A model generated the notes under the pieces. It was not told where the DNA came from and ran no database searches. It was given only the letters and a program-made list of their open reading frames with translations. A stretch of 58,928 nt of DNA from Gemmatales bacterium (lineage in GTDB: Bacteria; Planctomycetota; Planctomycetia; Gemmatales; HRBIN36): the NCBI GenBank assembly GCA_025055835.1, contig JANWWR010000107.1, positions 1 to 58,928 on the forward strand, given 5' to 3'. Each line of letters begins with the position of its first letter. Positions within the stretch are counted from its first letter, which is position 1. A program made the translations under genes and the position numbers. Of the stretch, positions 45,792-58,679 are shown in pieces.

Positions 45792-46178
45792 ATGTCCACG
45801 GTGTACTGGACGGAACCGCGGATTCTGAGTTGCCACTTCGATGACAGCTTCGAGCCGCATTTTCCCGCCTTTGACTTGGATTGGCAAAACACGCCGCTTG
45901 CGGAAAAACGCTTGTGGGAACTTCCCTGTGGCTTTCAATTTGTAGGTCAGCCGCCGGAACGGTTCGGCATCGAAGTGCTGCGTTTGGCGACGAATTGCTA
46001 CCAGGTACGGGTTCTGTGGAACCAGGCGTGTTTGCAATGGTCCCGGCTGCAACGCCAACAAATCCTGGGAACGAGCTTGGCCGAGGTGCTGGCGGCCCTG
46101 GGAACCGATCTGGCCTATCTCCTCGATCAACCGGTTTTGGCTCCCCAAACCGGCGAACCGCTGCGACGTGCCGGCTAA
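45792..46178 (+). CDS. Hypothetical protein
   Basis: GGAG SD before ATG 45792; globular composition; no recognised motif. Confidence 0.55.
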   Translation: MSTVYWTEPRILSCHFDDSFEPHFPAFDLDWQNTPLAEKRLWELPCGFQFVGQPPERFGIEVLRLATNCYQVRVLWNQACLQWSRLQRQQILGTSLAEVLAALGTDLAYLLDQPVLAPQTGEPLRRAG

Positions 46179-46183
46179 ACCCG

Positions 46184-47182
46184 ATTGGCCTCGTCTTCCG
46201 GCCCGCGAATGTCCTCCGGGACAATTTCGCTCTGTGTGATCTGGCCCGGTTGTGCCCACAAGGTAATGGTTTGAGGTTTTGCCACGACCGGAGCGATTTC
46301 TGGGAGCGCTGCCGAAACTTTTCCGATTTCCAAGTCAGCGTCGCTGAAAAGAACGGCGTTGTCGTCGCTGTCGGTTCCCTGGGCTACAAGGACGTCTGGG
46401 TGGCGGGGCAGCGGTGCCGCGTCGGCTACTTTCTCGACCGCATGGTACACCCCGATTTCCGTCGGCAAGGGATCGGACTGGCCCTGCTGCGCTATCAGCT
46501 CCAACTCAGCGCGCCGGTTAGCCTGCATTACGCTCTGGTTTTGGCTGACAATTGGCCGAACCGACGCTTGTTGGAACGAGCCGGGTTTCGTGCCTTGCCC
46601 GCTGCAATCCGGTATCTGCTCCTGATGCCGGAAAACTGGCGGTGGACTTCAGGGCGCTTGTCTTGCCAACTCCGCGAACCGATTGCCGCCGACCACGCCG
46701 CCTTGCTCGACAGCTACCTGCGCTCGCGCTACGCGCTTCTGGATGACAGCCGATTCTGTGGTACCGCCTCGGTGGTCGTCGGCGACCCCGACCGGTCCGC
46801 CGCCGGTATCGTCCACCGGCTCGGGGTGAAGCGAGTGGTTCGTGCTCCTTGGTATGCGCGCTGGATGGCCTGGCTGAAGTGGCGGATGCCGCTTGTGGGG
46901 TCGAGCCTCCGATTATGGCTGCTTGGCCACGTCTGGTACGCGGATCATCGCGCGCTCGCGGACCTGATTCAGGAAGTCAAGCACCTTGCCGCTGAAGCCG
47001 GCGTGGACGGCATCCTGATGCCCGTGGCAGCCAACGATCCGCGACTGGCTGACCTGCGCCGCTTCAGCCTGTCTGGCTGGGGTCTGCCGCAGCCGCGGGT
47101 CCTCATGTACGTCCGTGGACCGGAGGCCGAACGCTTGCTCAAGTCCACTTTGCCTGTCCTGCCCAGCCCCCGCGACGGATGA
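46184..47182 (+). CDS. GNAT-fold acetyl/acyltransferase (two-domain); start codon unresolved
   Basis: VHPDFRRQGIG acyl-CoA motif A and N-P---LLERAGF. No canonical in-frame start after the upstream stop at 46178; ATT at 46184 used as an approximation. Confidence 0.7.
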   Translation: MGLVFRPANVLRDNFALCDLARLCPQGNGLRFCHDRSDFWERCRNFSDFQVSVAEKNGVVVAVGSLGYKDVWVAGQRCRVGYFLDRMVHPDFRRQGIGLALLRYQLQLSAPVSLHYALVLADNWPNRRLLERAGFRALPAAIRYLLLMPENWRWTSGRLSCQLREPIAADHAALLDSYLRSRYALLDDSRFCGTASVVVGDPDRSAAGIVHRLGVKRVVRAPWYARWMAWLKWRMPLVGSSLRLWLLGHVWYADHRALADLIQEVKHLAAEAGVDGILMPVAANDPRLADLRRFSLSGWGLPQPRVLMYVRGPEAERLLKSTLPVLPSPRDG

Positions 47183-47254
47183 CAAGATTGTTACCGCCTC
47201 CGATAATTGTGCTGAGGCACACAAGCTCAACCTCCCTGGATCGGCCTCAGAGCG

Positions 47255-48574
47255 ATGTCGGAGCACGATCAGCTCGGCAAACTTCGAACCCAACGGTTGA
47301 AGACCCTGCTGTCCGCGGCGTCAACGTGCAATCCGTTTTATGCTCGCAAGCTCGCTTCGCTTCCGCTCAGGGAGCTTTTCAGCGAAGAAAGCCTCCCAGC
47401 ATTGCTTCGGTTCCTTCCCTTCACCACGAAAGAAGAACTGCAAGCGGATCAGGCAGCCCACCCGCCCTATGGCACAAACCTGTCGTCCGACTTACGGTGC
47501 TACGTCCGTCTGCACCAGACTTCGGGCACCTCGACTGGCTCCCCGCTTCGTTGGCTGGACACGGCCGAAAGCTGGAACTGGATGATCCACTGTTGGCAGA
47601 TCATTTACGACATTGTCGGCTTGAAGGCGGAGGACCGGGTGTTTTTCCCGTTTTCGTTCGGACCATTCATCGGCTTCTGGGCGGCATTCGAAGGCGCTGC
47701 GCGGCGGGGAGTGATGGTGCTGCCCGGAGGCGGCATGAACAGTCTGGCGCGTTTGCGATTTCTCCAGGAAAACGCCGTCACCGTGGTTTGCTGCACGCCG
47801 ACCTACGCTCTGCGTCTGGCCGAGGTCGCCAGAGACAACGGCATCCATCTGGCCGACTCTTCCGTGCGAATGCTGATCGTCGCCGGGGAGCCGGGCGGCA
47901 GCGTGCCTTCGACCCGGCAGCGTATCGAATCGGCCTGGGGGGCACGGGTTTTCGATCATTGCGGCATGACTGAGGTTGGCTCCTTCGGCATCGAATGTCC
48001 AGATAACCCAGGCGGAATGCACGTACTGGAAACCGAGTTCATCCCTGAGGTCGTGGATGCCGAAGGAATACCCGTCCCGCCGGGGCAGGAAGGAGAACTC
48101 GTCATCACGAACCTGGGACGGCTGGGCAGCCCGCTGATTCGGTACCGCACCGGCGACCGCGTCATTGCCGACCCCGAGCCGTGCCCCTGTGGTCGTCCGT
48201 GGATGCGGTTGCGCGGCGGCATCCTGGGCCGGACCGACGACATGCTCGTGGTCCGCGGCAATAACGTGTATCCCTCGGCGCTGGAGAACATCATCCGCCG
48301 CTTCGACGCCGTCGAGGAATTCCTCATCGAAGTGTGCGAGGCGGAGCCAGGTCCTGCACTTCGACTGCGACTGGAGTGTCGTCCTCATGAAGATGTGTCT
48401 CGCATCGTCGATCAAATCCAGCAGGCTGTTCGCAGCGAACTTCATTTTCGTCCCGACGTAGAAGCAGTACCGTGCGGAACCTTGCCTCGATCCGAGATGA
48501 AGTCCCGGCGGGTTGTTCGTAAACTAGCAACGGATGTGCTGACCGCCCGGAAATCCTCACCCCCGGCTTCCTGA
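47255..48574 (+). CDS. Phenylacetate-CoA ligase-like adenylate-forming enzyme (PaaK/F390-synthetase family)
   Basis: LPFTTKEEL, HQTSGTSTG, AGEPGG, DHCGMTE, YRTGD, GRTDDMLVVRGNNVYP. Confidence 0.88.
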   Translation: MSEHDQLGKLRTQRLKTLLSAASTCNPFYARKLASLPLRELFSEESLPALLRFLPFTTKEELQADQAAHPPYGTNLSSDLRCYVRLHQTSGTSTGSPLRWLDTAESWNWMIHCWQIIYDIVGLKAEDRVFFPFSFGPFIGFWAAFEGAARRGVMVLPGGGMNSLARLRFLQENAVTVVCCTPTYALRLAEVARDNGIHLADSSVRMLIVAGEPGGSVPSTRQRIESAWGARVFDHCGMTEVGSFGIECPDNPGGMHVLETEFIPEVVDAEGIPVPPGQEGELVITNLGRLGSPLIRYRTGDRVIADPEPCPCGRPWMRLRGGILGRTDDMLVVRGNNVYPSALENIIRRFDAVEEFLIEVCEAEPGPALRLRLECRPHEDVSRIVDQIQQAVRSELHFRPDVEAVPCGTLPRSEMKSRRVVRKLATDVLTARKSSPPAS

Positions 48575-48592
48575 ATGCGAGAGGTCCAGACC

Positions 48593-50914
48593 ATGCGCTT
48601 CACCTGGCTGCTTGCTCTCGGACTTGGGACATGGCTGGCGAACACGGCATCCGCCGCGGATTGGCTGCACTGGCGCGGCCCGGAGCAAAACGGCTACAGC
48701 CGCGACACAGGGCTTCCCGCCACCTGGTCGCCCTCCGGCGAGAACCTGATCTGGAAGCAGCCCTACGGCGGGCGTTCCGCTCCCCTGGTGTCCAAAGGCC
48801 GGGTGTACATCATCAACAACGCCGATCCGGGAAAAGTCACCGAGCAGGAACGGGTCATGTGCTTTGACGCCAAGACCGGCGAAAAGCTCTGGGAGTATCG
48901 CTTCAACCTGTTTCTGACCGACATCGTCACCAACCGCGTTGGCTGGGCCAACCTGGCCGCTGATCCCGAGACGGGCAACATCTACGCTCACGGCGTGCAG
49001 GGCCTGTTCATCTGCTTCAGTCCCGAGGGCAAGGTGCTGTGGCAAAAGTCCCTGACCGAGGAATATGGCCGTATCACCGGCTACGGCGGCCGCGTCGGTT
49101 CGCCGGTGGTGGATGAAAACCTCGTGATCATGAACATGCTCAATGCCAGCTGGGGCGATCAGGCCCGGGGCGGGCATCGCTTCATCGCTTGCGACAAACG
49201 TACCGGCGAAGTGGTCTGGTGGTCGGAGCCGGGCGGACCGCCGCTCGACACGCTCTACGCCACTCCCGTGGTAGCTGTCATCAACGGCCAGCGGCTGCTC
49301 ATCGTCGGCACGGCTGACGGCGGCGTGTACGCCCTTAAAGCACGCACCGGCGAGAAAGTCTGGGGAGCCGTTTTCAGTAAGCGCGGACTGAATGCCTCGC
49401 CGGTCGTCGAGGGCAATTACGTTTACGCCTGCCACAGCGAAGAGAATCTGGACACGACCGACATGGGCGGCGTGTATTGCTTCGATGCGTCGCACGTCGA
49501 AAACGGCAGCCCGAAGCTGGTCTGGCGGCGCGTCGGTATCCGGGCCGGGTATGCTTCGCCGGTCGTCCACAATGGACGGCTCTATGTCGCCGACAATGGC
49601 GCGCGTCTGCACTGCCTGGATGCGAAAACCGGAGAGACGATCTGGGACTACAAGTACGGCACCGAAGCGAAGGCTTCACCGGTTTTGGCCGATGGCAAAA
49701 TCTACGTCGGCGAAGTCGCTTCGCGATTCCACATCCTCGAAGCGGGTGATAAGGAATGCAAGCGGCTCAGCGTCGTGGAGTTTCCCGCCGGAGCCTCGGG
49801 GGAAAACTTTGAAATCAATGGCAGTGCGGCTGTTTCCGACGGGAGGGTGTACATCGTCACCGGTACCGATCTGTACTGCATCGGCACGAAGGACGGGAAG
49901 GCCGGCCAAGTGCCGCCGTTGCCCGCTGAACCGAAGCCCGCTCCAGACGCATCCATTTCTCACCTGCAAATCGTCCCCGCGGACGTCGTGCTGGCCAAAG
50001 GCGAATCGGTCCAGTTCAAGATTCGGGCCTTTGATGCCCAAGGCCGATTCCTGCGGGAAGTGGGTGCTGATGCGTGGAGCCTTCCCGAGCCACCTCCCCC
50101 CGCCACCGCGCCGGGCGGAACCGCGCCTCCGACGCCTCCGCCTCTCCGGGGCACGATCACTGCGGACGGCCGATTGACCGTGGACCCCAACGTGCCAGCT
50201 CAGGCCGGGGTCGTTCAAGCGAAGGTCGGCAATCTGACTGCCAGGGCGCGGGTCCGCGTCGCTCCGACGCTGCCCATCGTTCAGGACTTCGAGAAGCTCC
50301 CCGTTGGCGGCATCCCGGGCGGGTGGATCAATGTCGCGGGCAAGTTTGTCGTCGTTGAACAGGATGGCAGCAAATGCCTTAAGAAACTGGCCAACAACGC
50401 CAACCCCCTCCTGGCCCGTGCCTACGCCTTCATCGGCACGCCGACGATGAGCGACTACACCATCGAAGCCGACCTCATGGCCACCGAAAAACGTCGTTAT
50501 CTTCCTGACATGGGCATCGTCAATTGCCGCTATTCGCTGACCCTCGACGGCACCAAGCAGCGCCTCCTCCTTCGCACCTGGGAAGCCCGCAAGGCTCCCG
50601 GCGAGGAGATTCCGGGCCGAATCAACGCCAAGGTGGATTTTGAATGGAAGCCCAACGTTTGGTATCACTTCAAGTTGAAGGTAACGGTCCACGAGGGGCG
50701 AGCCATCTGCCAAGGCAAGGTCTGGATCAAGGGAGAAAAGGAGCCGGAGAACTGGACCATTCAGGCCGAGGATCCGATTCCGAACCGCGAAGGCGCTCCC
50801 GCCCTGTACGCCTATGCCTACGGGATTCCGCCCAGCGCCGAGGTCGCTGCCCGCAATCCGGGAACGGAAGTGTTCTTCGACAACATCCGCGTCACGCCCA
50901 ATCGGGGCAACTGA
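48593..50914 (+). CDS. Exported PQQ-like beta-propeller with an Ig-like domain and a C-terminal lectin-like (DUF1080/ConA-type) beta-sandwich
   Basis: Signal peptide ending ASA-ADW--WRGP; propeller repeats; IVPADVVL--GESVQF (Ig-like); C-terminal WYHFKLKV...GKVW...W. GAGG SD before 48593. Confidence 0.8.
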   Translation: MRFTWLLALGLGTWLANTASAADWLHWRGPEQNGYSRDTGLPATWSPSGENLIWKQPYGGRSAPLVSKGRVYIINNADPGKVTEQERVMCFDAKTGEKLWEYRFNLFLTDIVTNRVGWANLAADPETGNIYAHGVQGLFICFSPEGKVLWQKSLTEEYGRITGYGGRVGSPVVDENLVIMNMLNASWGDQARGGHRFIACDKRTGEVVWWSEPGGPPLDTLYATPVVAVINGQRLLIVGTADGGVYALKARTGEKVWGAVFSKRGLNASPVVEGNYVYACHSEENLDTTDMGGVYCFDASHVENGSPKLVWRRVGIRAGYASPVVHNGRLYVADNGARLHCLDAKTGETIWDYKYGTEAKASPVLADGKIYVGEVASRFHILEAGDKECKRLSVVEFPAGASGENFEINGSAAVSDGRVYIVTGTDLYCIGTKDGKAGQVPPLPAEPKPAPDASISHLQIVPADVVLAKGESVQFKIRAFDAQGRFLREVGADAWSLPEPPPPATAPGGTAPPTPPPLRGTITADGRLTVDPNVPAQAGVVQAKVGNLTARARVRVAPTLPIVQDFEKLPVGGIPGGWINVAGKFVVVEQDGSKCLKKLANNANPLLARAYAFIGTPTMSDYTIEADLMATEKRRYLPDMGIVNCRYSLTLDGTKQRLLLRTWEARKAPGEEIPGRINAKVDFEWKPNVWYHFKLKVTVHEGRAICQGKVWIKGEKEPENWTIQAEDPIPNREGAPALYAYAYGIPPSAEVAARNPGTEVFFDNIRVTPNRGN

Positions 50915-50986
50915 ATTGCTATGAATGCTAAAAACGTCCCTACGGTAAAGCCGTGTTGCTCGCCTCCTACCGCAGGAAAACCAGGC

Positions 50987-52693
50987 ATGAACCAACCCAG
51001 TTCGATTCGGAAACTGCTTCTGGGCCTCGCTACCCTCGGACTGTTGGCCGGGGTCGCGGTCGTCTCCGCCTATCTCAACGCCGAGTCCAAGCCCCATCTG
51101 GGTTACGACTCGACTTCATCCGCAAACTCGCCAAGCGGGCAGGTCGCTTTCGCCAACACACCTTCTCGAATGGCTCGCGCCGCCGCTCCTTCCCGCGAGG
51201 AAGTCATGATGCGGGTCTGGCCCATGTTCGGTGGCACCGTGTTCCGCAACATGGTGAATACCTTTGAACGCAATCTCCCCCACGAATGGGAAATCCCTGA
51301 CAAACGCCGCAACAAGCCTGGCAAGAACGTCAAATGGACCGCTGCCTTGGGTTCGCAATCCTACGGCAACCCGGTCGTGTACGGCGGCAAGATTTTTCTT
51401 GGTACCAACAACGACGGCTTGCGAAACCCCCGCGACGCCAAGAAGCGTGCCGACGGCAAACTGGAGCCGATCGACAAGGGCAACGTCATGTGCTTCCGTG
51501 AGTCGGACGGCAAGTTTCTCTGGCAGGCAGTCCACGACAAGCTCGAATCGGGCCGGGTCAACGACTGGCCGCTCCAGGGCGTGTGTTCTTCGCCGTTCGT
51601 CGAGAAAGATCGGCTCTACTACGTCAGCAACCGCTGCGAACTGATCTGCGCCGACACGGAAGGTTTTGCTAACGGCAATCAGGGTGTCCAGGACGAAAAG
51701 TACCAGGATCCCACCGACGCCGACATCATCTGGCGGCTGGACATGATGGAGGAACTAGGCGTGTTCCCCCACAATCTGGCCGTCTGCTCGCCCCTGGTCG
51801 TCGGCGACATTGTCTTCGTCGTCACCGGCAATGGCCACGATGAGTCTCACGAAAACATCCCCGCGCCGCGTGCCCCGAGCTTCATTGCCGTGGACAAGCA
51901 CACGGGCAAAGTCCTCTGGGAAGATGCCTCGCCGGGTGACAAGATTCTTCACGGCCAATGGTCCAATCCGACCTATTGCGAAGTCAAGGGCCAGCCGCAG
52001 ATTATCTTCCCGGGCGGCGACGGTTGGCTGCGGGCTTTCGACCCCAAAACCGGCAAGCTCCTTTGGAAGTTTGATTGCAATCCCAAGGCATCCGTGTACA
52101 TCCTGGGCGGTCGCGGCACCCGCAACGAGATCATCGCCACGCCGGTTGTCCATGACGGGCTGGTGTACGTCGCCGTGGGACAGGATCCCGAGCACGGCGA
52201 AGGCGTCGGGCATCTGTGGTGCATTGACCCCTCCAAGGCAAGACCGGACAACATCGACCTCTCCCCCGTCAACGACAACTTTGATCCCAAGGCTCCGGAG
52301 AACAAGAACTCCGGTCTGGTCTGGCACCACGGCGGGCTGGACGACAAAGGCAACATGATCTTTCGCCGGTCGATCTCGACCTGTGCCGTGGCCGACGGCC
52401 TGTGCTACGCTGCCAACTTGAGCGGCTTCCTCGATTGCCTCGACGCCAAGACCGGGCAGCTTTACTGGCGGCACGACATGCTCAGCGCCGTCTGGGGGTC
52501 TCCGTATGTCGTGGACGGCAAGGTGTACATCGGCACCGATGAAGGCGATGTGTACGTCTTCGCTCATTCCAAAGAGAAGAAACTGCTGGCCAAGAACGAG
52601 ATGGACGGGCCGACCTTGAGCACGCCCATCGCGGTCAACGGCGTCCTCTACGTCATGACCCGGACGACTTTGTTCGCCATCAGCCACCAATAG
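50987..52693 (+). CDS. Exported PQQ-like beta-propeller protein
   Basis: Signal/anchor; WPMFGG---RNMV; KW-A-LGSQSYGNPVV; CSSP; repeated LLWKFD/W blades. Confidence 0.82.
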   Translation: MNQPSSIRKLLLGLATLGLLAGVAVVSAYLNAESKPHLGYDSTSSANSPSGQVAFANTPSRMARAAAPSREEVMMRVWPMFGGTVFRNMVNTFERNLPHEWEIPDKRRNKPGKNVKWTAALGSQSYGNPVVYGGKIFLGTNNDGLRNPRDAKKRADGKLEPIDKGNVMCFRESDGKFLWQAVHDKLESGRVNDWPLQGVCSSPFVEKDRLYYVSNRCELICADTEGFANGNQGVQDEKYQDPTDADIIWRLDMMEELGVFPHNLAVCSPLVVGDIVFVVTGNGHDESHENIPAPRAPSFIAVDKHTGKVLWEDASPGDKILHGQWSNPTYCEVKGQPQIIFPGGDGWLRAFDPKTGKLLWKFDCNPKASVYILGGRGTRNEIIATPVVHDGLVYVAVGQDPEHGEGVGHLWCIDPSKARPDNIDLSPVNDNFDPKAPENKNSGLVWHHGGLDDKGNMIFRRSISTCAVADGLCYAANLSGFLDCLDAKTGQLYWRHDMLSAVWGSPYVVDGKVYIGTDEGDVYVFAHSKEKKLLAKNEMDGPTLSTPIAVNGVLYVMTRTTLFAISHQ

Positions 52694-52732
52694 CGGCCGA
52701 ACCCCAGCCGGCCTGAAAGCGAGAAAGCATCC

Positions 52733-53845
52733 ATGAGCACAGTCGCTTTGTCTTCCGAACTCCAGGAAAAGGTTCAGCACGCGCGGGAAGAACTGGACGC
52801 CCACGTCCGGGAAATCATCCGCTGGCATTTCAGCCCGGAGACGGGCACGCCGTTTTGGCTGGAGAAAGCCAAGGAACTGCCCTTCGATCCGCTTAAGGAC
52901 ATCCAGACGTTCGATGACTTGAGACTATTCGGGCACTTCGAAGATGAATGGCTGCGTGGCGGTCCCGTGCGGCGCTGGGTGCCGAAGGCCTATGCCCACC
53001 GACCCATTTACGTCTTCGAAACCGGCGGGACCACCGGCATTCCCAAGACCCGAATCGCCATCGACGATTTCCGCATCGACTACGAAATGTTCAGCGAGAC
53101 GTTGCCGGACGAGTATTTTCCCAAGGGGGCCAACTGGCTCATGCTCGGCCCTTCCGGTCCGCGTCGGCTCCGACTGGCCGTTGAGCATCTGTGTCAATAT
53201 CGCGGCGGCATCTGTTTCTGCGTCGATCTCGACCCCCGCTGGGTCATCAAGCTCATCAAGCGCGGCTGGATGGAACATCTGCGAGCCTATCAGGACCACG
53301 TCATCGATCAGGCGATGACCATCCTGTCAGCCAACCACGAAATCAAGTGCATGTTCACGACGCCGAAACTGCTCGACGCCTTGGCCGCCCGGTTGGAGAA
53401 GGAAGGGACCAGCATCGCCAAGGTGGGGATCACCGGCATCTTCTGCGGCGGCACGGAGATGACCTCGCAGTGGATCCGTTTCGCCATCGAAGAACTGCTT
53501 GGACCTGGCGTGTACATTGCCCCGACCTACGGCAACACCCTGATGGGCCTGGCAGCCGCTGACATGCCGACGCCGGACCACGACTACAAGATCACCTACT
53601 ACGCTCCCCAGCCACGGGCCGTCGTGCAGGTCATGGATTTTGACGACTATGAAAAGGAAGTGCCTTACGGCCAGGAGGGCCGGGTGATGCTCACGACGCT
53701 GACCAAGGAGTTCTTCGTGCCGCGGTTCATGGAGCGGGACGAAGGCGTGCGAGAGTTGCCGTGCCTGAAATATCCGTGGGACGGCGTCAGCGGCGTCAAG
53801 CCATTCCGGGGCTTCGCGGCCACCACGACTGTCGGCGTGTACTGA
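52733..53845 (+). CDS. GriC/EhpF-like (LuxE/PaaK superfamily) adenylating subunit of a two-component carboxylate reductase
   Basis: WHFSPETGTPFWLE N-terminus as I recall for EhpF/GriC; P-loop variant FETGGTTGIPK; PTYGNT; GRVMLTTL; ERD. Followed directly by an acylating ALDH-like gene. Confidence 0.65.
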   Translation: MSTVALSSELQEKVQHAREELDAHVREIIRWHFSPETGTPFWLEKAKELPFDPLKDIQTFDDLRLFGHFEDEWLRGGPVRRWVPKAYAHRPIYVFETGGTTGIPKTRIAIDDFRIDYEMFSETLPDEYFPKGANWLMLGPSGPRRLRLAVEHLCQYRGGICFCVDLDPRWVIKLIKRGWMEHLRAYQDHVIDQAMTILSANHEIKCMFTTPKLLDALAARLEKEGTSIAKVGITGIFCGGTEMTSQWIRFAIEELLGPGVYIAPTYGNTLMGLAAADMPTPDHDYKITYYAPQPRAVVQVMDFDDYEKEVPYGQEGRVMLTTLTKEFFVPRFMERDEGVRELPCLKYPWDGVSGVKPFRGFAATTTVGVY

Positions 53846-53909
53846 GTGCAATTGTTCCAGCCCAAGGGCGACGCAGCAAACCAGGCTAATCATCCGCAGG
53901 GAGTCAATC

Positions 53910-55340
53910 ATGCTGCACATCCCGATATCCCGTTGGGGCGAGCCGTACAAGAGCCTCGACATCGACAAGGTCGTCCACTTCGAGACCGGCGAGGTGCTGG
54001 CCGAGGTCAGCCGGGCCAACGGCGGACTGGTTGAACGGGACATGCGTTACGCCCAGCGCGCCCGGGACGTGCTGCGCGAGATTCCCATCAAAGAACTTCT
54101 CCAGATGGTCAAGAAGGCGGCCGATCTGTACACGTCGGCCACCTTGCCCCTGGGGAATGGCGAGCAGACGCCGGAGCAGTTCGTCCGCATGCAGTCGGCC
54201 ACGACTGGCCTGCCGGAGCACATGTGCCGGTTCAACATGACCAAGAACCATTTCGTGCTCAACGAAATGGATAAGATTCTCGATGCCCTGACCCGTGGTC
54301 TTGATCTCACCGTGCTGACCAAGGGCTATGGCGTCGAGTCCCGCGGGGTGCCGATCAGCTATCAAGCCCAATCGCCCGTCCTCGGGCTGGTCCTGCCGAG
54401 CAACTCGCCCGGTGTCCATACACTCTGGCTGCCGATCATTCCCATGCAGATCGGTCTGGTCTTGAAGCCTGGTCCCCAGGAGCCGTGGACGCCGTACCGC
54501 ATGGCCAATGCGTTCATCCAGGCGGGCATTCCGAAACAGGCCATCGCCATCTATCCCGGCCTCGGCGATGTCGGCGCAGCGGTTCTTCAGCACTGCCCCC
54601 GGAGTCTGATTTTCGGCGGAGCAGCGACCGTGGAACAGTATCGCGGCAATCCGCGGGTCCAGGCCCACGGTCCTGGCTTCAGCAAGATACTTATTGGCGA
54701 TGACAAGGTGGATCAGTGGGACAAGTATCTCGATCTCATGGTGGACAGCGTGTTGGTCAACAGCGGTCGAGGTTGCATCAACTGCTCCGGCATCTGGGTT
54801 TCCCGTCATGCTCGCAAGATCGCCGAGGCGTTGGCGGAACGCATGGGACCGATCATGCCGCTGCCGCCCGATGATCCCAAGGCCGCCCTGGCAGCGTTCA
54901 CCGTCAAAGGGCAGGCCGACGCCATCAACACCGAGATCGACCATGATGTGAAACAGCCTGGCGTCCATGACATGACCGCAAAATTCGGCCCGCGGCTGGT
55001 GAAGAAAGAGCGCTGCGACTACCTCAGGCCGACGGTCATCCTGTGCGACTCGCCGGAGCCGGCCATTGCCAGGAAGGAATATATGTTCCCGTTTGTGACC
55101 GTGGTGCAGTGCCCGCAGGAGAAGATGATCGAGAAGATCGGGCCAACGCTGGTCTGCACCGCCATCACGGAGGACCCGAAGTTCCAGCGAGCGCTCCTCG
55201 ACGCCGTTCACATCGACCGCTTGAACATCGGTGCGATTCCGACCATCAAGCTGAACTGGTTGCAGCCCCACGAAGGCAACATCGTGGATTTCCTTTTCCG
55301 CGCTCGCGCCTTCCAGTTTGACGGTATGTTGAAGGCGTGA
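53910..55340 (+). CDS. Aldehyde-dehydrogenase-superfamily acyl reductase (GriD/LuxC-like)
   Basis: LPSNSPG, LKPG--EPW, catalytic region NSGRGCINCS (Cys289), EYMFPF. HGPG replaces the ELGG of hydrolytic ALDHs. Confidence 0.78.
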   Translation: MLHIPISRWGEPYKSLDIDKVVHFETGEVLAEVSRANGGLVERDMRYAQRARDVLREIPIKELLQMVKKAADLYTSATLPLGNGEQTPEQFVRMQSATTGLPEHMCRFNMTKNHFVLNEMDKILDALTRGLDLTVLTKGYGVESRGVPISYQAQSPVLGLVLPSNSPGVHTLWLPIIPMQIGLVLKPGPQEPWTPYRMANAFIQAGIPKQAIAIYPGLGDVGAAVLQHCPRSLIFGGAATVEQYRGNPRVQAHGPGFSKILIGDDKVDQWDKYLDLMVDSVLVNSGRGCINCSGIWVSRHARKIAEALAERMGPIMPLPPDDPKAALAAFTVKGQADAINTEIDHDVKQPGVHDMTAKFGPRLVKKERCDYLRPTVILCDSPEPAIARKEYMFPFVTVVQCPQEKMIEKIGPTLVCTAITEDPKFQRALLDAVHIDRLNIGAIPTIKLNWLQPHEGNIVDFLFRARAFQFDGMLKA

Positions 55341-55384
55341 GGCAAGGTCGTCTGCCACTTGGGGCCGAGACGGACGAGAGAGGC

Positions 55385-56542
55385 ATGAAAGCGATCCTGC
55401 AAGCTTTCGATTTCCATCCGCAGACGCGGATCGTCTTCGGCCCCGGCTCCATCAACCGCCTCGGGGAATTGACACGGGAGTTGGGAGGACGACGGGTTCT
55501 TGTCGTCACCGACCCTGGACTGGAACAGGCTGGCCATCCGCAAAAAGCGGTTCGTTCCTTGGAAGAAGCCGGTCTTTCGGTCACGGTCTTTGATCAGGTC
55601 GAGGAAAACCCGACAACTTTTCACGTCGAAGCCGGGCTGCGAGTCGCCCGTCAAGCGAACATTGATTTCCTCGTGGCGGTCGGCGGCGGCAGTGCGATGG
55701 ACGTCGCCAAAGGCATCAACTTCCTGTTTACCAACGGCGGCAAGATGGCAGACTACTGGGGCAACGGAAAGGCGACGAAACCGATGTTGCCCAGCATCGG
55801 CGTGCCGACCACAGCCGGGACCGGAAGCGAGGCCCAGTCCTATGCCCTGATCGCCGATCCCAAGACGCACTTGAAGATGGCCTGCGGCGACCGCAAAGCG
55901 GCGTTCCGCGTGGCTGTCCTCGATCCGGAAGTGACCCTGACCCAGCCGCCCCGAGTGACCGCCGACACCGGCATGGACGCCATCTCCCACGCCCTCGAAG
56001 CCTACGTCACCACGCGGCGAAACCCCTTGGCTCAAGCCCTGGCTCGGGAGGCGTGGCGGCTGCTGGCGGGCCATTTTGAGCGGGTGCTGCACGATCCCTC
56101 CGATCTCGATGCCCGGGCAGCGATGCAGCTCGGAGCACACTTGGCCGGCATGGCCATCGAAAACTCCATGCTCGGAGCAACGCACGCCCTGGCCAATCCA
56201 ATCACCGCCCACTACGGCATTACCCACGGCCAAGCCATCGGCCTGATGCTTCCGCACGTTATCCGCTTCAACTCCCAGGCGGTCGGGGATCTTTACGCCG
56301 ATCTTCTCCGGGAGGTGCACCAGGACAATGGCCGCTACGGCGATGCCGGCAAGCTGCTTGCGGAACGGGTCGAAGGCCTTGCTCGTGCGGCGGGACTGCC
56401 AGCTCGTCTTTCGGACTTGGGAATCAATGCCGCGATTCTGCCGGTCCTGGCCGAGGAAGCCTCGCAGCAGTGGACTGGCCGCTTCAATCCCCGCCCGGTT
56501 TCTGCGGCGGAACTCCTCACGCTCTATCAGACTGCCTATTGA
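55385..56542 (+). CDS. Iron-containing alcohol dehydrogenase
   Basis: GGGSAMDVAK, VPTTAGTGSE, DTGMDAISHALEAY, LGATHALANP, HGQAIG. Confidence 0.93.
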   Translation: MKAILQAFDFHPQTRIVFGPGSINRLGELTRELGGRRVLVVTDPGLEQAGHPQKAVRSLEEAGLSVTVFDQVEENPTTFHVEAGLRVARQANIDFLVAVGGGSAMDVAKGINFLFTNGGKMADYWGNGKATKPMLPSIGVPTTAGTGSEAQSYALIADPKTHLKMACGDRKAAFRVAVLDPEVTLTQPPRVTADTGMDAISHALEAYVTTRRNPLAQALAREAWRLLAGHFERVLHDPSDLDARAAMQLGAHLAGMAIENSMLGATHALANPITAHYGITHGQAIGLMLPHVIRFNSQAVGDLYADLLREVHQDNGRYGDAGKLLAERVEGLARAAGLPARLSDLGINAAILPVLAEEASQQWTGRFNPRPVSAAELLTLYQTAY

Positions 56543-57504
56543 CCCCGTCCCTGAGATGCGCGGAACGCGTCGGCCCGCAACCAGTTCAGCGTGGCACGCA
56601 GGCCTTCTTCGAGATTGAATCGCGGTCGGTAACCCAGGTCGTGTTCGGCTCGACCAATGTCGGCCTGGGAATGGCGGACATCGCCGGGTCGCGGCGGAGC
56701 GTGAATCGGGGTAAACTCAGTGCCAAAAATTCGGTTCAAGGAGGCGGTCAGGTCCAGCAGCGACGTCGCCTGACCGGAGCCGACGTTATACACGTTGCCA
56801 AACGCTTTCGGCGATTCCGCGGCCAGCAGGAATGCCTGAACAACGTCTTCGACGAAAACGAAGTCCCGCGATTGCAAGCCATCCCCGTAGATCGTCGGGG
56901 TTCGATCTTCGAGAAAAGCACGAAGGAACAGGGCGATCACGCCGGAATACGGGTTGGAGGCATCTTGCCGTGGACCGAACACGTTGAATAGCCGAAGGCG
57001 GACGGTTTCCAATCCGTAGGTCCGAGTGAAGGCTTGGCAGTAATGTTCTCCAGCCAGCTTGGCGGCGGCGTAAGGAGACAAGGGCAACAGTGGATCATCC
57101 TCCCGCCGCAAGGCTCCGACCTGATCGCCATACGCGCTGCTGCTGGCAGCGTAGATGACGCGACGCACACCGCCCTCTTTTGCAGCTAGCAAGACGTTTA
57201 ACGTGCCAGTGGCGCAAACTTCATGGGTCCTAACCGGGTCTTCCACGCTCTTCTGCACAGATGGCAGGGCGGCCAGGTGAAAGACCCGATCGACGTCTCG
57301 AACCGCCAACCGGACGGATTCGAGGTCCGTCACGGAACCTTGCTGAAAATCGACTTGGTGCCGCACCGAGGAGAGATTGGAGAGTTTGCCGGTGCTCAAG
57401 TCGTCGAGAACGCGGACAAGGTGCCCTTGGCGAACCAGGGTTTCGACCAGATGCGAGCCGATGAAGCCCGCTCCGCCTGTTACGAGACAAGTCGGCACCG
57501 TCAT
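56536..57504 (-). CDS. NAD-dependent nucleotide-sugar 4-epimerase (extended SDR; GalE/WbpP-like)
   Basis: TGGAGFIGSHL, ASSSAYG, YAAAK, FNVFGPRQD---YSGVI, RDFVFV-D. Confidence 0.92.
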   Translation of the reverse strand: MTVPTCLVTGGAGFIGSHLVETLVRQGHLVRVLDDLSTGKLSNLSSVRHQVDFQQGSVTDLESVRLAVRDVDRVFHLAALPSVQKSVEDPVRTHEVCATGTLNVLLAAKEGGVRRVIYAASSSAYGDQVGALRREDDPLLPLSPYAAAKLAGEHYCQAFTRTYGLETVRLRLFNVFGPRQDASNPYSGVIALFLRAFLEDRTPTIYGDGLQSRDFVFVEDVVQAFLLAAESPKAFGNVYNVGSGQATSLLDLTASLNRIFGTEFTPIHAPPRPGDVRHSQADIGRAEHDLGYRPRFNLEEGLRATLNWLRADAFRASQGRGQ

Positions 57505-57543: not shown

Positions 57544-58104
57544 TCAAGTCACTTTGACCAGCACCGTATCGTCGAGCAGCACCGAAGCCCCCCGCTGGAT
57601 GAAATCCACACGGACGATGAACCGCCGTCCCGATGCGGTTCGCTCGATGACGCCGCGAAGCCCCGCCAACGGCCCGCTGAGGATTTCGACCAGGTCGCCT
57701 GCTCCCAACTTCTCCTCGGGAGTCACCGGTTCGCCCGACAGCAGCAACCGGCGGATTTGCCGCAAGTCGTTCCAGAGCTGATCCTGAGCCGCGACCGGAA
57801 GGGCCTTCAAAACGCGATTCGTCTTGAGAGCCAAGAGCCGTTCCTGTTCCGTGGCCAATTGGAAAACGTATCCTGGAAACAGCGGCAGATGCGTTGTCAC
57901 CATCCGTCCTTGGAACTTCTTCCGTTTGCAGTACAGCGGTAGAAAAAATGGTGCCTGGCGACTCAGCAGTTCCCGGACCACGCACTTTTCCTGCCGGGGT
58001 CTGGTGTGCAGGGCGTACCAGATTCGTCCAGGTGCGCATCCCGGCTCAGCGACGTCGAGAAGATCAGGCGGAAAGACTTCGGTTTCAGCCGGCAAAACCG
58101 GCAT
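57544..58104 (-). CDS. NusG paralogue (UpxY/RfaH/LoaP-type antiterminator)
   Basis: WYALHTRPRQEK, PLFPGYVF, KOW GDLVEILSGPLAGLRG; GAAGGAGGT SD before ATG 58104. Confidence 0.88.
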   Translation of the reverse strand: MPVLPAETEVFPPDLLDVAEPGCAPGRIWYALHTRPRQEKCVVRELLSRQAPFFLPLYCKRKKFQGRMVTTHLPLFPGYVFQLATEQERLLALKTNRVLKALPVAAQDQLWNDLRQIRRLLLSGEPVTPEEKLGAGDLVEILSGPLAGLRGVIERTASGRRFIVRVDFIQRGASVLLDDTVLVKVT

Positions 58105-58180
58105 GGCTAATACCTCCTTCGCAGACGGCCCTGCGACGGGACGGGAAACTTTGACGGGACAAGGACGTGATACGCAACCC

Positions 58181-58525
58181 TTATCCCGGAGGCCAGCCCA
58201 TGATCCGACCACCGAGCAAGTGGAAGTGCAGATGCGGGACCGTCTGCCCGGCCCCTTCCTTGCAGTTGATGATGATCCGATAGCCGTTGTCGATGCCCAA
58301 TTGCCGAGCCAGCTTCGCCGCGACCAGGTGGAGATGACCTAAAAGCAGCTTGTCTTCCTCCGTGATGTCAGAGTGCGTGCGAATCTCCTTCCGCGGGATG
58401 ATAAGCACATGGACCGGGGCCTGCGGGTTGATGTCGTGGAAAGCGAGGCAGAGATCGTCTTCGTAAATGATTTTTGCCGGAAGCTGCCTGTTGATGATCT
58501 TGAGAAAAATGTTTTCCGCAAGCAT
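58181..58525 (-). CDS. Histidine triad nucleotide-binding protein (HinT-like)
   Basis: IF-KII----PA-I-YEDD, DINPQAPVH-L-IP, GQTVPHLHFHLLGGR. Confidence 0.95.
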   Translation of the reverse strand: MLAENIFLKIINRQLPAKIIYEDDLCLAFHDINPQAPVHVLIIPRKEIRTHSDITEEDKLLLGHLHLVAAKLARQLGIDNGYRIIINCKEGAGQTVPHLHFHLLGGRIMGWPPG

Positions 58526-58663
58526 GGGCTGACTCCTTGGGGAGTGTTCAGAGCGAACCTTCACGGGAACACTGTCCGTGGTTCCTGAAGGGCATTGTAT
58601 CGGATAAGCAGGGAGGCTCGAAACAGGTTCTTCGCCATGTCCGTGGGAAGACTTACCCCACCG

Positions 58664-58679
58664 TGGTATCATGATTTCA
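58664..58679 (+). promoter_or_regulatory. Extended -10 (TGGTATCAT) 6 nt before ATG: candidate leaderless promoter
   Basis: TG at 58664-58665, TATCAT at 58667-58672, ATG at 58679, no SD. Confidence 0.5.

Follow-up and report, generated by a model that had tools for sequence, protein, structure and literature searches.

A probable split carboxylate reductase of the EhpF/EhpG (GriC/GriD) type at the core of a larger conserved gene set in Planctomycetota and Acidobacteriota

Split carboxylate reductases of the EhpF/EhpG (GriC/GriD) kind, in which an adenylating enzyme is paired with a separate protein of the aldehyde dehydrogenase (ALDH) fold, are, to our knowledge, known from only two antibiotic or pigment pathways. 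A comparable division of labor is seen in LuxE/LuxC, where one protein activates the acyl group with ATP, and a partner from the ALDH superfamily that lacks the hydrolytic glutamate carries this group as a cysteine thioester and reduces it with NADPH. GriC forms the acyl-AMP of 3-amino-4-hydroxybenzoate, which GriD reduces to the aldehyde, according to a passage in PMC10179220 that cites Suzuki et al. 2007. Here, we describe three adjacent genes from a Gemmatales bacterium (assembly GCA_025055835.1, contig JANWWR010000107.1; the stretch analyzed, 58,928 nucleotides in length, is referred to below as the window) that, judging by their sequences, very probably convert a carboxylic acid to an aldehyde and then to an alcohol. 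An earlier note on this DNA envisaged a stand-alone route, which turned out to be incorrect: the trio lies at the center of a larger conserved multi-gene system in Planctomycetota and Acidobacteriota, encoded partly in the window (47255-52693) and partly on other contigs. The three genes, referred to as genes 1 to 3, are:

52733-53845, plus strand: predicted adenylating enzyme of the EhpF/GriC type, 370 amino acids, with the ANL N-terminal domain and without the C-terminal subdomain
53910-55340, plus strand: predicted ALDH-fold thioester reductase of the EhpG/GriD type, 476 amino acids, Pfam Aldedh 72 bits
55385 (or 55337)-56542, plus strand: predicted group III iron-containing alcohol dehydrogenase (Fe-ADH), 385 or 401 amino acids, Pfam Fe-ADH and ADH_Fe_C

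The three open reading frames are co-directional, with short gaps between them, and their coordinates in the earlier note are exact to the base, as are the positions of the motifs WHFSPETGTPFW (52823-52858), ETGGTTGIPK (53018-53047) and HGPG (54666-54677) and of Cys289. Signal peptides and membrane segments are missing from the N-termini of all three proteins, which the earlier note had described as cytoplasmic. Likewise, the Pfam search of the window proteins bore out the statement that phenazine, grixazone and lux genes are missing from the vicinity of the trio.

In the gene 1 protein, the Pfam AMP-binding profile scores only the end of the N-terminal domain, the match stopping at profile position 374 of 384, and no AMP-binding_C match was obtained. 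In other ANL enzymes, the C-terminal subdomain carries a lysine that is used in adenylation. Residues 21-359 align with residues 20-354 of the 366-amino acid EhpF (Protein Data Bank (PDB) 3l2k/3hgu; E = 7.5e-47), and all remaining PDB entries stay at E = 0.01 or worse. Because gene 1 aligns end to end with this crystallized protein, it is not a broken gene. The identity is 32% to Pantoea EhpF, 33% to the Streptomyces 'arylcarboxylate reductase', over 92-99% of the gene 1 length, and 33-37% overall to Streptomyces proteins annotated under this name or as AMP-binding proteins; plasmid-borne homologues are annotated either as 'arylcarboxylate reductase', the name given to GriC, or as 'phenazine biosynthesis protein'. 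Motifs recognizable in the protein include the P-loop ETGGTTGIPK, YGNT and ERD, and the gene is present in a single copy in its genome. By size, by the presence of the N-terminal domain only and by full-length sequence similarity, gene 1 thus belongs to the EhpF/GriC type.

The gene 2 protein is related to EhpG (105 bits, E = 6e-29), which is encoded directly after EhpF in the Pantoea ehp cluster and is itself an ALDH-family protein. The two share GPGxSK, with QGPG in EhpG at the place of HGPG, an aligned cysteine and the C-terminal PH(E/D)G..FL; the best-matching canonical ALDH in the PDB reaches 55 bits, about half the EhpG score. A HMMER alignment to the maize ALDH 4pz2 places HGPGFSK (HGPG being residues 253-256) on LELGGKSP, GRGC on GEAC and PSNSPG on PWNFPS. 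From this alignment it follows that the general-base glutamate has been replaced, with the nucleophilic cysteine (Cys289 in GRGCINCSG, codon 54774-54776, of the catalytic type) and the asparagine (Asn165 in PSNSPG, codon 54402-54404, of the oxyanion type) retained, as the earlier note had claimed for the replacement of ELGG by HGPG and for Cys289. HGPG, the cysteine, PSNSPG and the C-terminal PHEGN are conserved in 12-13 orthologues. Gene 2 is of the EhpG/GriD type, because its product resembles EhpG more closely than it does the hydrolytic ALDHs and because it comes right after the gene for the adenylating enzyme. The matches to EhpF and EhpG thus agree with the proposal that the two proteins make up a carboxylate reductase of the GriC/GriD kind, and we consider it highly likely that this sequence-based assignment of the enzyme type is correct. 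Gene 1 would form an acyl-adenylate from ATP and the carboxylic acid; the acyl group would then pass onto Cys289 of the gene 2 protein, where, the water-activating glutamate having been lost, NAD(P)H would reduce the thioester, giving the aldehyde.

Gene 3 would reduce this aldehyde to the alcohol. Its product matches both Pfam profiles of the Fe-ADH family over practically their full lengths (PF00465, 174 bits, profile positions 2-168 of 168; ADH_Fe_C, PF25137, 148 bits, positions 1-194 of 194), and no NCBIfam equivalog reaches its cut-off, ErcA being the best with 301 against a cut-off of 550. The ATG at 55385 is the more likely start, because it is preceded by the purine-rich gagagagg and fits the N-termini of homologues; the alternative GTG at 55337 overlaps the stop codon of gene 2 as GTGA. 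At its stop codon, gene 3 overlaps by 7 nucleotides the stop codon of an NAD-dependent epimerase/dehydratase gene that runs toward it (56536-57504, minus strand); further on are genes of the NusG-like (57544-58212) and HIT (58181-58672) kinds.

To characterize the distribution of the system, we searched 201 genomes sampled across the phylum. Gene 1 has a match at E <= 1e-20 in 54 of these and at E < 1e-100 in 39; the latter are referred to as EhpF-positive, the remaining 162 as the others. Orthologue-level thresholds were applied to candidate partners in the same genomes, and the resulting genome sets were compared, with the following counts:

HemN-like radical S-adenosylmethionine (SAM) enzyme: all 39 EhpF-positive genomes, none of the 162 others, that is, exactly the same 39 genomes
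Fe-ADH: 38 of 39, none of 162; the single miss is a genome of 1330 contigs
CndH/PltA-type halogenase-like flavoprotein: 38 of 39, none of 162
590-amino acid BamB-like propeller: 36 of 39, 3 of 162; two of the three misses hold the gene in their own locus or on a sister contig
195-amino acid UbiC/DUF98-like chorismate lyase homologue: 26 of 39, none of 162
PaaK-like ligase, strong matches (at least 46% identity): 24 of 39 and one partial match (G183), none of 162

The genome set of the PaaK-like ligase nearly coincides with the 26-genome set of the 195-amino acid protein. The co-occurrence persists within the families that include both carriers and non-carriers (f4, f13, f14, f24 and f45), and does not depend on linkage. 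In a closed genome, the gene 1-gene 2 pair is found at 3.96 Mb, with the Fe-ADH, a propeller, the radical SAM, the 195-amino acid and the halogenase-like genes forming an operon at 2.00 Mb, the 590-amino acid propeller at 2.04 Mb and the PaaK-like gene at 0.77 Mb. The Fe-ADH that the earlier note had included in the pathway is therefore a true functional partner, with an orthologue in all but one of the EhpF-positive genomes even when unlinked. Fisher p-values for the co-occurrence range from 1e-23 to 1e-42 and overstate the significance because the genomes are related by shared ancestry.

The comparison of twenty 20-kilobase loci revealed a recurring gene order that is common to several families. 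Gene content was called by tblastn with a clean locus of low G+C content (L030, from genome G093) as the reference, because antisense open reading frames confound gene calling in G+C-rich loci. The order is: propeller(s), a MarR regulator, a 761-amino acid propeller, a 515-amino acid propeller, a Na+/solute symporter and the EhpF-like gene; next, the ALDH-like gene, Fe-ADH, a 398-amino acid propeller lipoprotein and the HemN-like radical SAM enzyme; and finally, the 195-amino acid protein, the halogenase-like flavoprotein, a 4HBT thioesterase, a small EamA-like membrane protein and the PaaK-like ligase. Loci L024, L027, L028, L030 and L031 are syntenic over the entire set; elsewhere, the co-occurring genes, Fe-ADH and the PaaK-like gene included, often lie megabases from the pair. 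The window contains the portion PaaK-like, propeller, propeller, EhpF-like, ALDH-like and Fe-ADH (47255-56542), and other contigs of the same genome carry a propeller with the radical SAM gene (C38), the halogenase-like gene (C2), the gene for the 195-amino acid protein (C156) and the thioesterase gene (C89).

A scan of one genome per species yielded at least 592 relatives of gene 1, and neighbors were counted in the best 80 loci. An ALDH-like gene follows the EhpF-like gene in 70 of these 80 (most of the remainder being on short or incomplete contigs), and Fe-ADH comes next in 15. The adjacency bears on the possibility that the pair is not a reductase at all, gene 1 making an amide or ester, with the ALDH-fold protein and Fe-ADH acting oxidatively, or the former serving only as a scaffold. 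The chemistry of an enzyme that lacks the ANL C-terminal subdomain may indeed be atypical, and PaaK-like relatives such as BagE/FevW form esters. Nevertheless, the cysteine and asparagine are kept and the hydrolytic glutamate is lost in all orthologues as well as in EhpG, and the adjacency fits a direct hand-over of the acyl group, as in GriC/GriD, so that we regard this option as very unlikely.

Three of the partners are encoded elsewhere in the genome:

C2, 4263-5555: flavin halogenase homologue of the CndH/PltA group, with GGGPSG (GxGxxG) and GWFWYIPL (WxWxIP)
C156, 917-1504: UbiC/DUF98-like chorismate lyase homologue, 195 amino acids
C38, 22660-23985: HemN-like (class C) radical SAM enzyme, with CRKRCKFC (CxxxCxxC) and GGGTP

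Nine of the ten best PDB matches of the halogenase homologue are named halogenases, the top ones, all of them flavin-dependent, being 8zop, CndH (3e1t), Mpy16 (5buk), PltA (5dbj), CmlS (3i3l) and Bmp2 (5bva). Its FVKKYS aligns with FPIKRGG of CndH, with a lysine on the active-site lysine of CndH. Thus, in its motifs the flavoprotein is a member of the CndH/PltA group, and halogenation is its putative activity. For the 195-amino acid protein, there were no Pfam or NCBIfam matches; a profile of seven orthologues matches the DUF98 protein AF1396, and a structural model (pLDDT 90) retrieves, with Foldseek, the same protein (2nwi; E = 6e-7, TMt 0.74-0.77), followed by Escherichia coli UbiC (1fw9; E = 6e-5). 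The direct comparison of the profile with E. coli UbiC by hhalign is weak (E = 5e-4, probability 31%), the fold also occurring in GntR effector domains; the motifs aligned are MTxxxE, R(E/K)ILL (with Arg76 of UbiC), PLG and (W/Y)GR. In one genome (G012; L031:1534-3621, contig C3, ~351011-352897), the chorismate-lyase-like and halogenase-like proteins are found in a single open frame of ~700 amino acids, possibly a natural fusion of two consecutive steps. A gene with a 4-hydroxyphenylpyruvate dioxygenase-like N-terminus lies 3 kilobases from the chorismate-lyase-like gene (C156:4501-5607), perhaps by coincidence.

The radical SAM orthologue from L030, 56% identical to the one in this genome, has a Pfam Radical_SAM match and scores nearly equally, and below cut-off, with several NCBIfam models (HemN 192, ChuW/HutW 185 and HemW 173 bits, with HemZ similar); we therefore assign this enzyme to no named subfamily. 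On C38 (21494-23985), a gene for a 389-amino acid propeller lipoprotein, the L030 orthologue of which strongly matches Beta-prop_ACSF4, runs 4 nucleotides into the start of the radical SAM gene, so that an exported protein is translationally coupled to a cytoplasmic enzyme. The order, propeller first and radical SAM gene second, recurs in most related genomes. In loci of the Pirellulales type (L090:16798-17253, L092:17546-18781, L122:7736-9275), genes for a GcvH-like (lipoyl/biotinyl-type) protein of 151 amino acids and for a protein of ~360-410 amino acids with 4Fe-4S ferredoxin-type cysteine motifs come after the radical SAM gene; these could possibly be carrier or electron partners of the radical SAM enzyme.

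Upstream of the trio, the window contains the following genes:

45881-47182, plus strand: GNAT-domain protein, 433 amino acids, Pfam Acetyltransf_1, 72 nucleotides upstream of the PaaK-like gene
47255-48574, plus strand: PaaK-like aryl/phenylacetate-CoA ligase homologue, Pfam AMP-binding and AMP-binding_C_2
48575-50914, plus strand: predicted exported beta-propeller of the BamB/PQQ_2 type, 779 amino acids, with the signal peptide MRFTWLLALGLGTWLANTASA and an extra C-terminal domain
50921-52693, plus strand: predicted membrane-anchored, outward-facing eight-bladed beta-propeller, 590 amino acids, transmembrane helix 29-52

The presence of both AMP-binding and AMP-binding_C_2 makes the PaaK-like protein a complete ANL enzyme. 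Its NCBIfam scores (PaaK 208 bits, FlxY 159, BagE/FevW 120) are all below cut-off, and the gene belongs to the same cluster in L016, L023, L030 and L039-L047. Each propeller has a signal peptide or a membrane anchor with the N-terminus inside. The 779-amino acid protein (Pfam PQQ_2, 128 bits; best PDB sequence matches to BamB) keeps synteny with the pair across several families, in no fewer than 12 loci, and in some Acidobacteriota. For the 590-amino acid protein, an eight-bladed model (pLDDT 81) has BamB as the best Foldseek match (TMt 0.76-0.80), followed by tetrathionate hydrolase and pyrroloquinoline quinone (PQQ) alcohol dehydrogenases. We rejected the assignment of the propellers as true PQQ quinoproteins, BamB being the best match by both sequence and fold and PQQ dehydrogenases matching weakly. 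The alignment of the 590-amino acid family contains the nearly invariant motifs NRCEVVC (CxxxC) and GQDPEH..GVGH, which hint at a disulfide, catalytic or metal site that BamB lacks. The GNAT gene was considered as a member of the system and rejected, since none of 100 related loci has a homologue beside the pair; it probably lies outside the system. No Rfam riboswitch match of note was obtained, and promoter- and terminator-like sites occur at chance level, with the exception of a 10-of-12 promoter-like site at 47179-47207, in front of the PaaK-like gene.

Among the substrates that the earlier note had listed (a lipid, aryl or cofactor precursor), this context favors an aryl acid. A 4-hydroxybenzoate-type aryl acid is the most likely substrate because of the conserved partners, namely, the radical SAM enzyme, the halogenase homologue, the propellers and, in about two-thirds of the genomes, the lyase-like and PaaK-like proteins. 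Several lines of indirect reasoning converge on an aryl acid: both characterized relatives of the pair reduce aryl acids; the partners include the chorismate-lyase-like protein, a homologue of phenol/pyrrole-type halogenases, the PaaK-like ligase and, encoded in the cluster, the 4-hydroxybenzoyl-CoA-type (4HBT) thioesterase and the MarR regulator; the lyase-like and PaaK-like genes are gained and lost together, as would be expected of a supply module; and a planctomycete makes 3,5-dibromo-p-anisic acid. The compound has been assigned, without genetic proof, to an adjacent chorismate-lyase-like/halogenase gene pair, BaaA/BaaB, by authors who sought a missing methyltransferase and whose text is silent on reductase and radical SAM genes as well as on propellers (bioRxiv 10.1101/723874).

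Under the resulting scheme, chorismate would be converted to 4-hydroxybenzoate, which the PaaK-like ligase would turn into the CoA thioester; ring halogenation and hydrolysis of the thioester by the 4HBT protein would follow, and the trio would then reduce the acid to the aldehyde and the alcohol. The radical SAM enzyme might modify the substrate further, and in genomes without the supply module, the acid could be imported via the symporter. The catalytic steps in this scheme are proposed from homology, and the substrate from neighbors and co-occurrence; the direction of flux is similarly deduced. Taken together, we lean, if only slightly, toward the complete reading, in which an acid of the 4-hydroxybenzoate type, derived from chorismate and probably halogenated, would be reduced at the expense of ATP and NAD(P)H to the matching aldehyde and benzyl alcohol.

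The symporter suggests another possibility, namely, that the trio takes part in uptake and processing rather than biosynthesis, reducing an imported carboxylate, aromatic or not, for detoxification, assimilation or reuse. Such an acid could arise extracellularly through the exported propellers, which co-occur strictly with the pair, and the chorismate-lyase-like/PaaK-like module would be an optional extra source, in keeping with its absence from one-third of the core-positive genomes. In L024 and L026-L031, the gene immediately upstream of the EhpF-like one encodes an SSF-family symporter. The genome studied here, however, retains the whole core without a symporter orthologue (best match 24% identity); spending ATP and NAD(P)H on the reduction of an acid would be unusual in catabolism; and the halogenase-like and radical SAM proteins, present in 38-39 of the 39 genomes, fit tailoring better than assimilation. 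We accordingly deem uptake rather unlikely.

Acidobacteriota carry the pair at 70-73% identity, along with radical SAM and halogenase-like genes. Among 12 genomes labeled Acidobacteriota that have the pair, the radical SAM orthologue was found in 11 (53-62% identity) and the halogenase-like orthologue in 9-10 (44-52% identity; G212 not counted); these two genes adjoin each other, tens of kilobases from the pair. In Vicinamibacterales (L052, L054, L055, L059, L064, L070, L107, L109 and L111), a pterin-4a-carbinolamine dehydratase-like gene precedes the EhpF-like and ALDH-like genes, and downstream come, often after a gene for a GT4 glycosyltransferase, genes for an ABC ATPase and a 1150-amino acid double-FtsX permease, a context that differs from the planctomycete one with Fe-ADH. 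A link to tetrahydromethanopterin, suggested by the archaeal DUF98 match and the acidobacterial pterin dehydratase gene, was considered and rejected as a general explanation, Mch (PF02289) being present in only 13 of the 39 genomes.

In the tree of gene 1 relatives, the conserved clade comprises 97 sequences, and a branch that is long and has full support sets it apart from the EhpF/GriC-like sequences and from a second, distant planctomycete group. The deepest branches of the clade are planctomycete families, with most of the acidobacterial sequences nested among these on very short branches, a pattern consistent with inter-phylum transfer and strong purifying selection. Out of 8000 database relatives, the 120 with the highest scores share 79-97% identity with gene 1. 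The distant group (L032-L035, from G132, G032, G169 and G022) shows 32-36% identity, belongs to other families and has conserved neighbors of its own; no adjacent ALDH-like gene was detectable there with the query used. EhpF-like genes on contigs labeled Acidimicrobiia (L098) and Clostridia (L104) fall within the acidobacterial and planctomycete groups of the tree, and the former genome (G212) has a halogenase-like gene 71% identical to that of the genome studied here; both contigs are probably misbinned.

The acidobacterial context brings up a lipid route with the logic of LuxE/LuxC, in which the pair would reduce a fatty or other aliphatic acid to a fatty aldehyde and Fe-ADH would yield the fatty alcohol, destined for waxes, ether lipids or glycolipids of the envelope. 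The two-protein logic, the GT4 glycosyltransferase and large ABC/FtsX exporter adjoining the acidobacterial pair, which suggest an envelope product, and a high conservation, in the manner of housekeeping lipid enzymes, would all agree with such a route. Set against these are the failure of the LuxE and LuxC Pfam models to match, the use of aryl acids by the only characterized relatives, the aromatic type of the co-occurring genes (chorismate-lyase-like, halogenase homologue, PaaK-like, 4HBT and MarR) and a cluster in which no gene encodes an acyl carrier protein, an acyltransferase or a fatty acid synthase. A lipid substrate hence seems most unlikely.

Several observations weigh against the aryl scheme as a whole. 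De novo synthesis of 4-hydroxybenzoate is not the universal source of the acid, because one-third of the core-positive genomes lack both the chorismate-lyase-like and the PaaK-like genes. A simple acid-to-alcohol route does not account for the radical SAM enzyme and the exported propellers. The conservation (79-97%, and 70-73% across phyla) is unusual for secondary-metabolite tailoring, and in most acidobacterial loci, the pair is found beside the GT4 glycosyltransferase and ABC/FtsX transporter, not an alcohol dehydrogenase; together, these features point away from a classical secondary metabolite and toward a product with an envelope-related or housekeeping function. BaaA/BaaB are likened to the two genes of this genome by gene-pair type, orthology being unproven. 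Finally, an unrelated marker, Mch, is likewise nested in the EhpF-positive set (13 of 39 compared with none of 162), which indicates that the phyletic statistics are inflated; the weight therefore lies on the identity of the genome sets, not on nesting. The conservation, the acidobacterial context and the unproven orthology to BaaA/BaaB are the reasons why our confidence in the full aryl scheme is well below that in the enzyme type.

A more novel reading would take the whole set for a self-contained aryl redox shuttle that links the cytoplasm with the periplasm, the equivalent in bacteria of the chlorinated anisyl alcohol cycle found in white-rot fungi. By this analogy, a halogenated alcohol derived from 4-hydroxybenzoate would be made in the cytoplasm by the lyase-like, PaaK-like, halogenase, radical SAM, split reductase and Fe-ADH proteins; it would be exported and oxidized by the BamB-like propellers, acting as aryl-alcohol oxidoreductases with a novel cofactor or none; and the aldehyde or acid would return via the symporter, to be reduced again with ATP and NAD(P)H. 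Although we consider such a shuttle distinctly improbable, it would, if true, make the abundant soil Planctomycetota and Acidobacteriota an unrecognized natural source of organohalogens.

Apart from the Baa preprint, our search of the literature, which covered EhpF, GriC/GriD and, in Planctomycetes, halogenase, chorismate lyase and HemN-like proteins together, found no description of the system. The new elements are the exact co-occurrence across genomes, the partners of the halogenase-like and chorismate-lyase-like kinds, the pairing of the PaaK-like and lyase-like genes as a module and the link to that preprint. The split reductase is among the most conserved proteins of a gene set that is present in about one-fifth of the sampled Planctomycetota and also in Acidobacteriota. 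An orphan pair thereby becomes a defined system, with 4-hydroxybenzoate and its halogenated or methylated derivatives as candidate substrates, that can be connected to 3,5-dibromo-p-anisic acid, the first natural product reported from a planctomycete. The system also offers a first functional context for the exported BamB/PQQ-like propellers, which are numerous and unexplained in these phyla, and, if halogenation is real, would have implications for the question of how organohalogens in soils and the sea arise from microbes.

Compared with described systems, the trio resembles LuxE/LuxC, to which the earlier note had likened it, by analogy of mechanism and not by membership, because the LuxE (PF04443) and LuxC (PF05893) models find no match at E <= 0.01; luxD and luxAB are missing as well, and the context is aromatic, unlike the fatty acid context of the Lux proteins. 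Type I carboxylic acid reductases (CARs) of Nocardia and Mycobacterium, with the architecture A-PCP-R (adenylation domain, peptidyl carrier protein, reductase domain), catalyze the same net reaction, from acid, ATP and NADPH to aldehyde. CARs have been used with UbiC and an alcohol dehydrogenase in engineered routes to 4-hydroxybenzyl alcohol. These enzymes are single polypeptides with a phosphopantetheine carrier and a reductase domain of the short-chain dehydrogenase/reductase (SDR) type, whereas the trio has an ALDH-fold reductase and no carrier; as genes 1-3 lack Pfam PP-binding and NAD_binding_4 matches and, hence, a carrier or SDR reductase domain, the trio is not a type I CAR. BaaA/BaaB of Planctomycetales strain 10988 are an adjacent gene pair of the same type, from the same phylum, as the partners that co-occur with the trio; the compound assigned to them, on bioinformatic grounds only, is a halogenated derivative of 4-hydroxybenzoate, an acid of the sort that we propose as the substrate.

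The closest relatives remain the two split reductases. EhpF/EhpG, from the D-alanylgriseoluteic acid phenazine cluster of Pantoea agglomerans (3HGU, 3HGV, 3L2K), have the same succession of an ANL protein of ~366-370 amino acids and an ALDH-fold protein of ~475 amino acids, with 32% and 25% identity to genes 1 and 2, respectively, over nearly the full length, GPGxSK in place of ELGGKS, the aligned cysteine and the C-terminal PH(E/D)G..FL in both ALDH-fold proteins. Unlike this pair, the planctomycete clade is far more conserved, is confined almost wholly to two phyla, has no phenazine genes and travels not with antibiotic genes but with the radical SAM enzyme, the halogenase homologue, Fe-ADH and the propellers. 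GriC/GriD, from grixazone biosynthesis in Streptomyces griseus, display the same two-protein architecture, and the GriC substrate is itself a 4-hydroxybenzoate derivative. In contrast to the grixazone pathway, there are here neither griH/griI-type genes for the synthesis of 3-amino-4-hydroxybenzoic acid nor a phenoxazinone synthase; the ring would probably come from the chorismate-lyase-like protein instead, and the dedicated alcohol dehydrogenase would add one further step of reduction.

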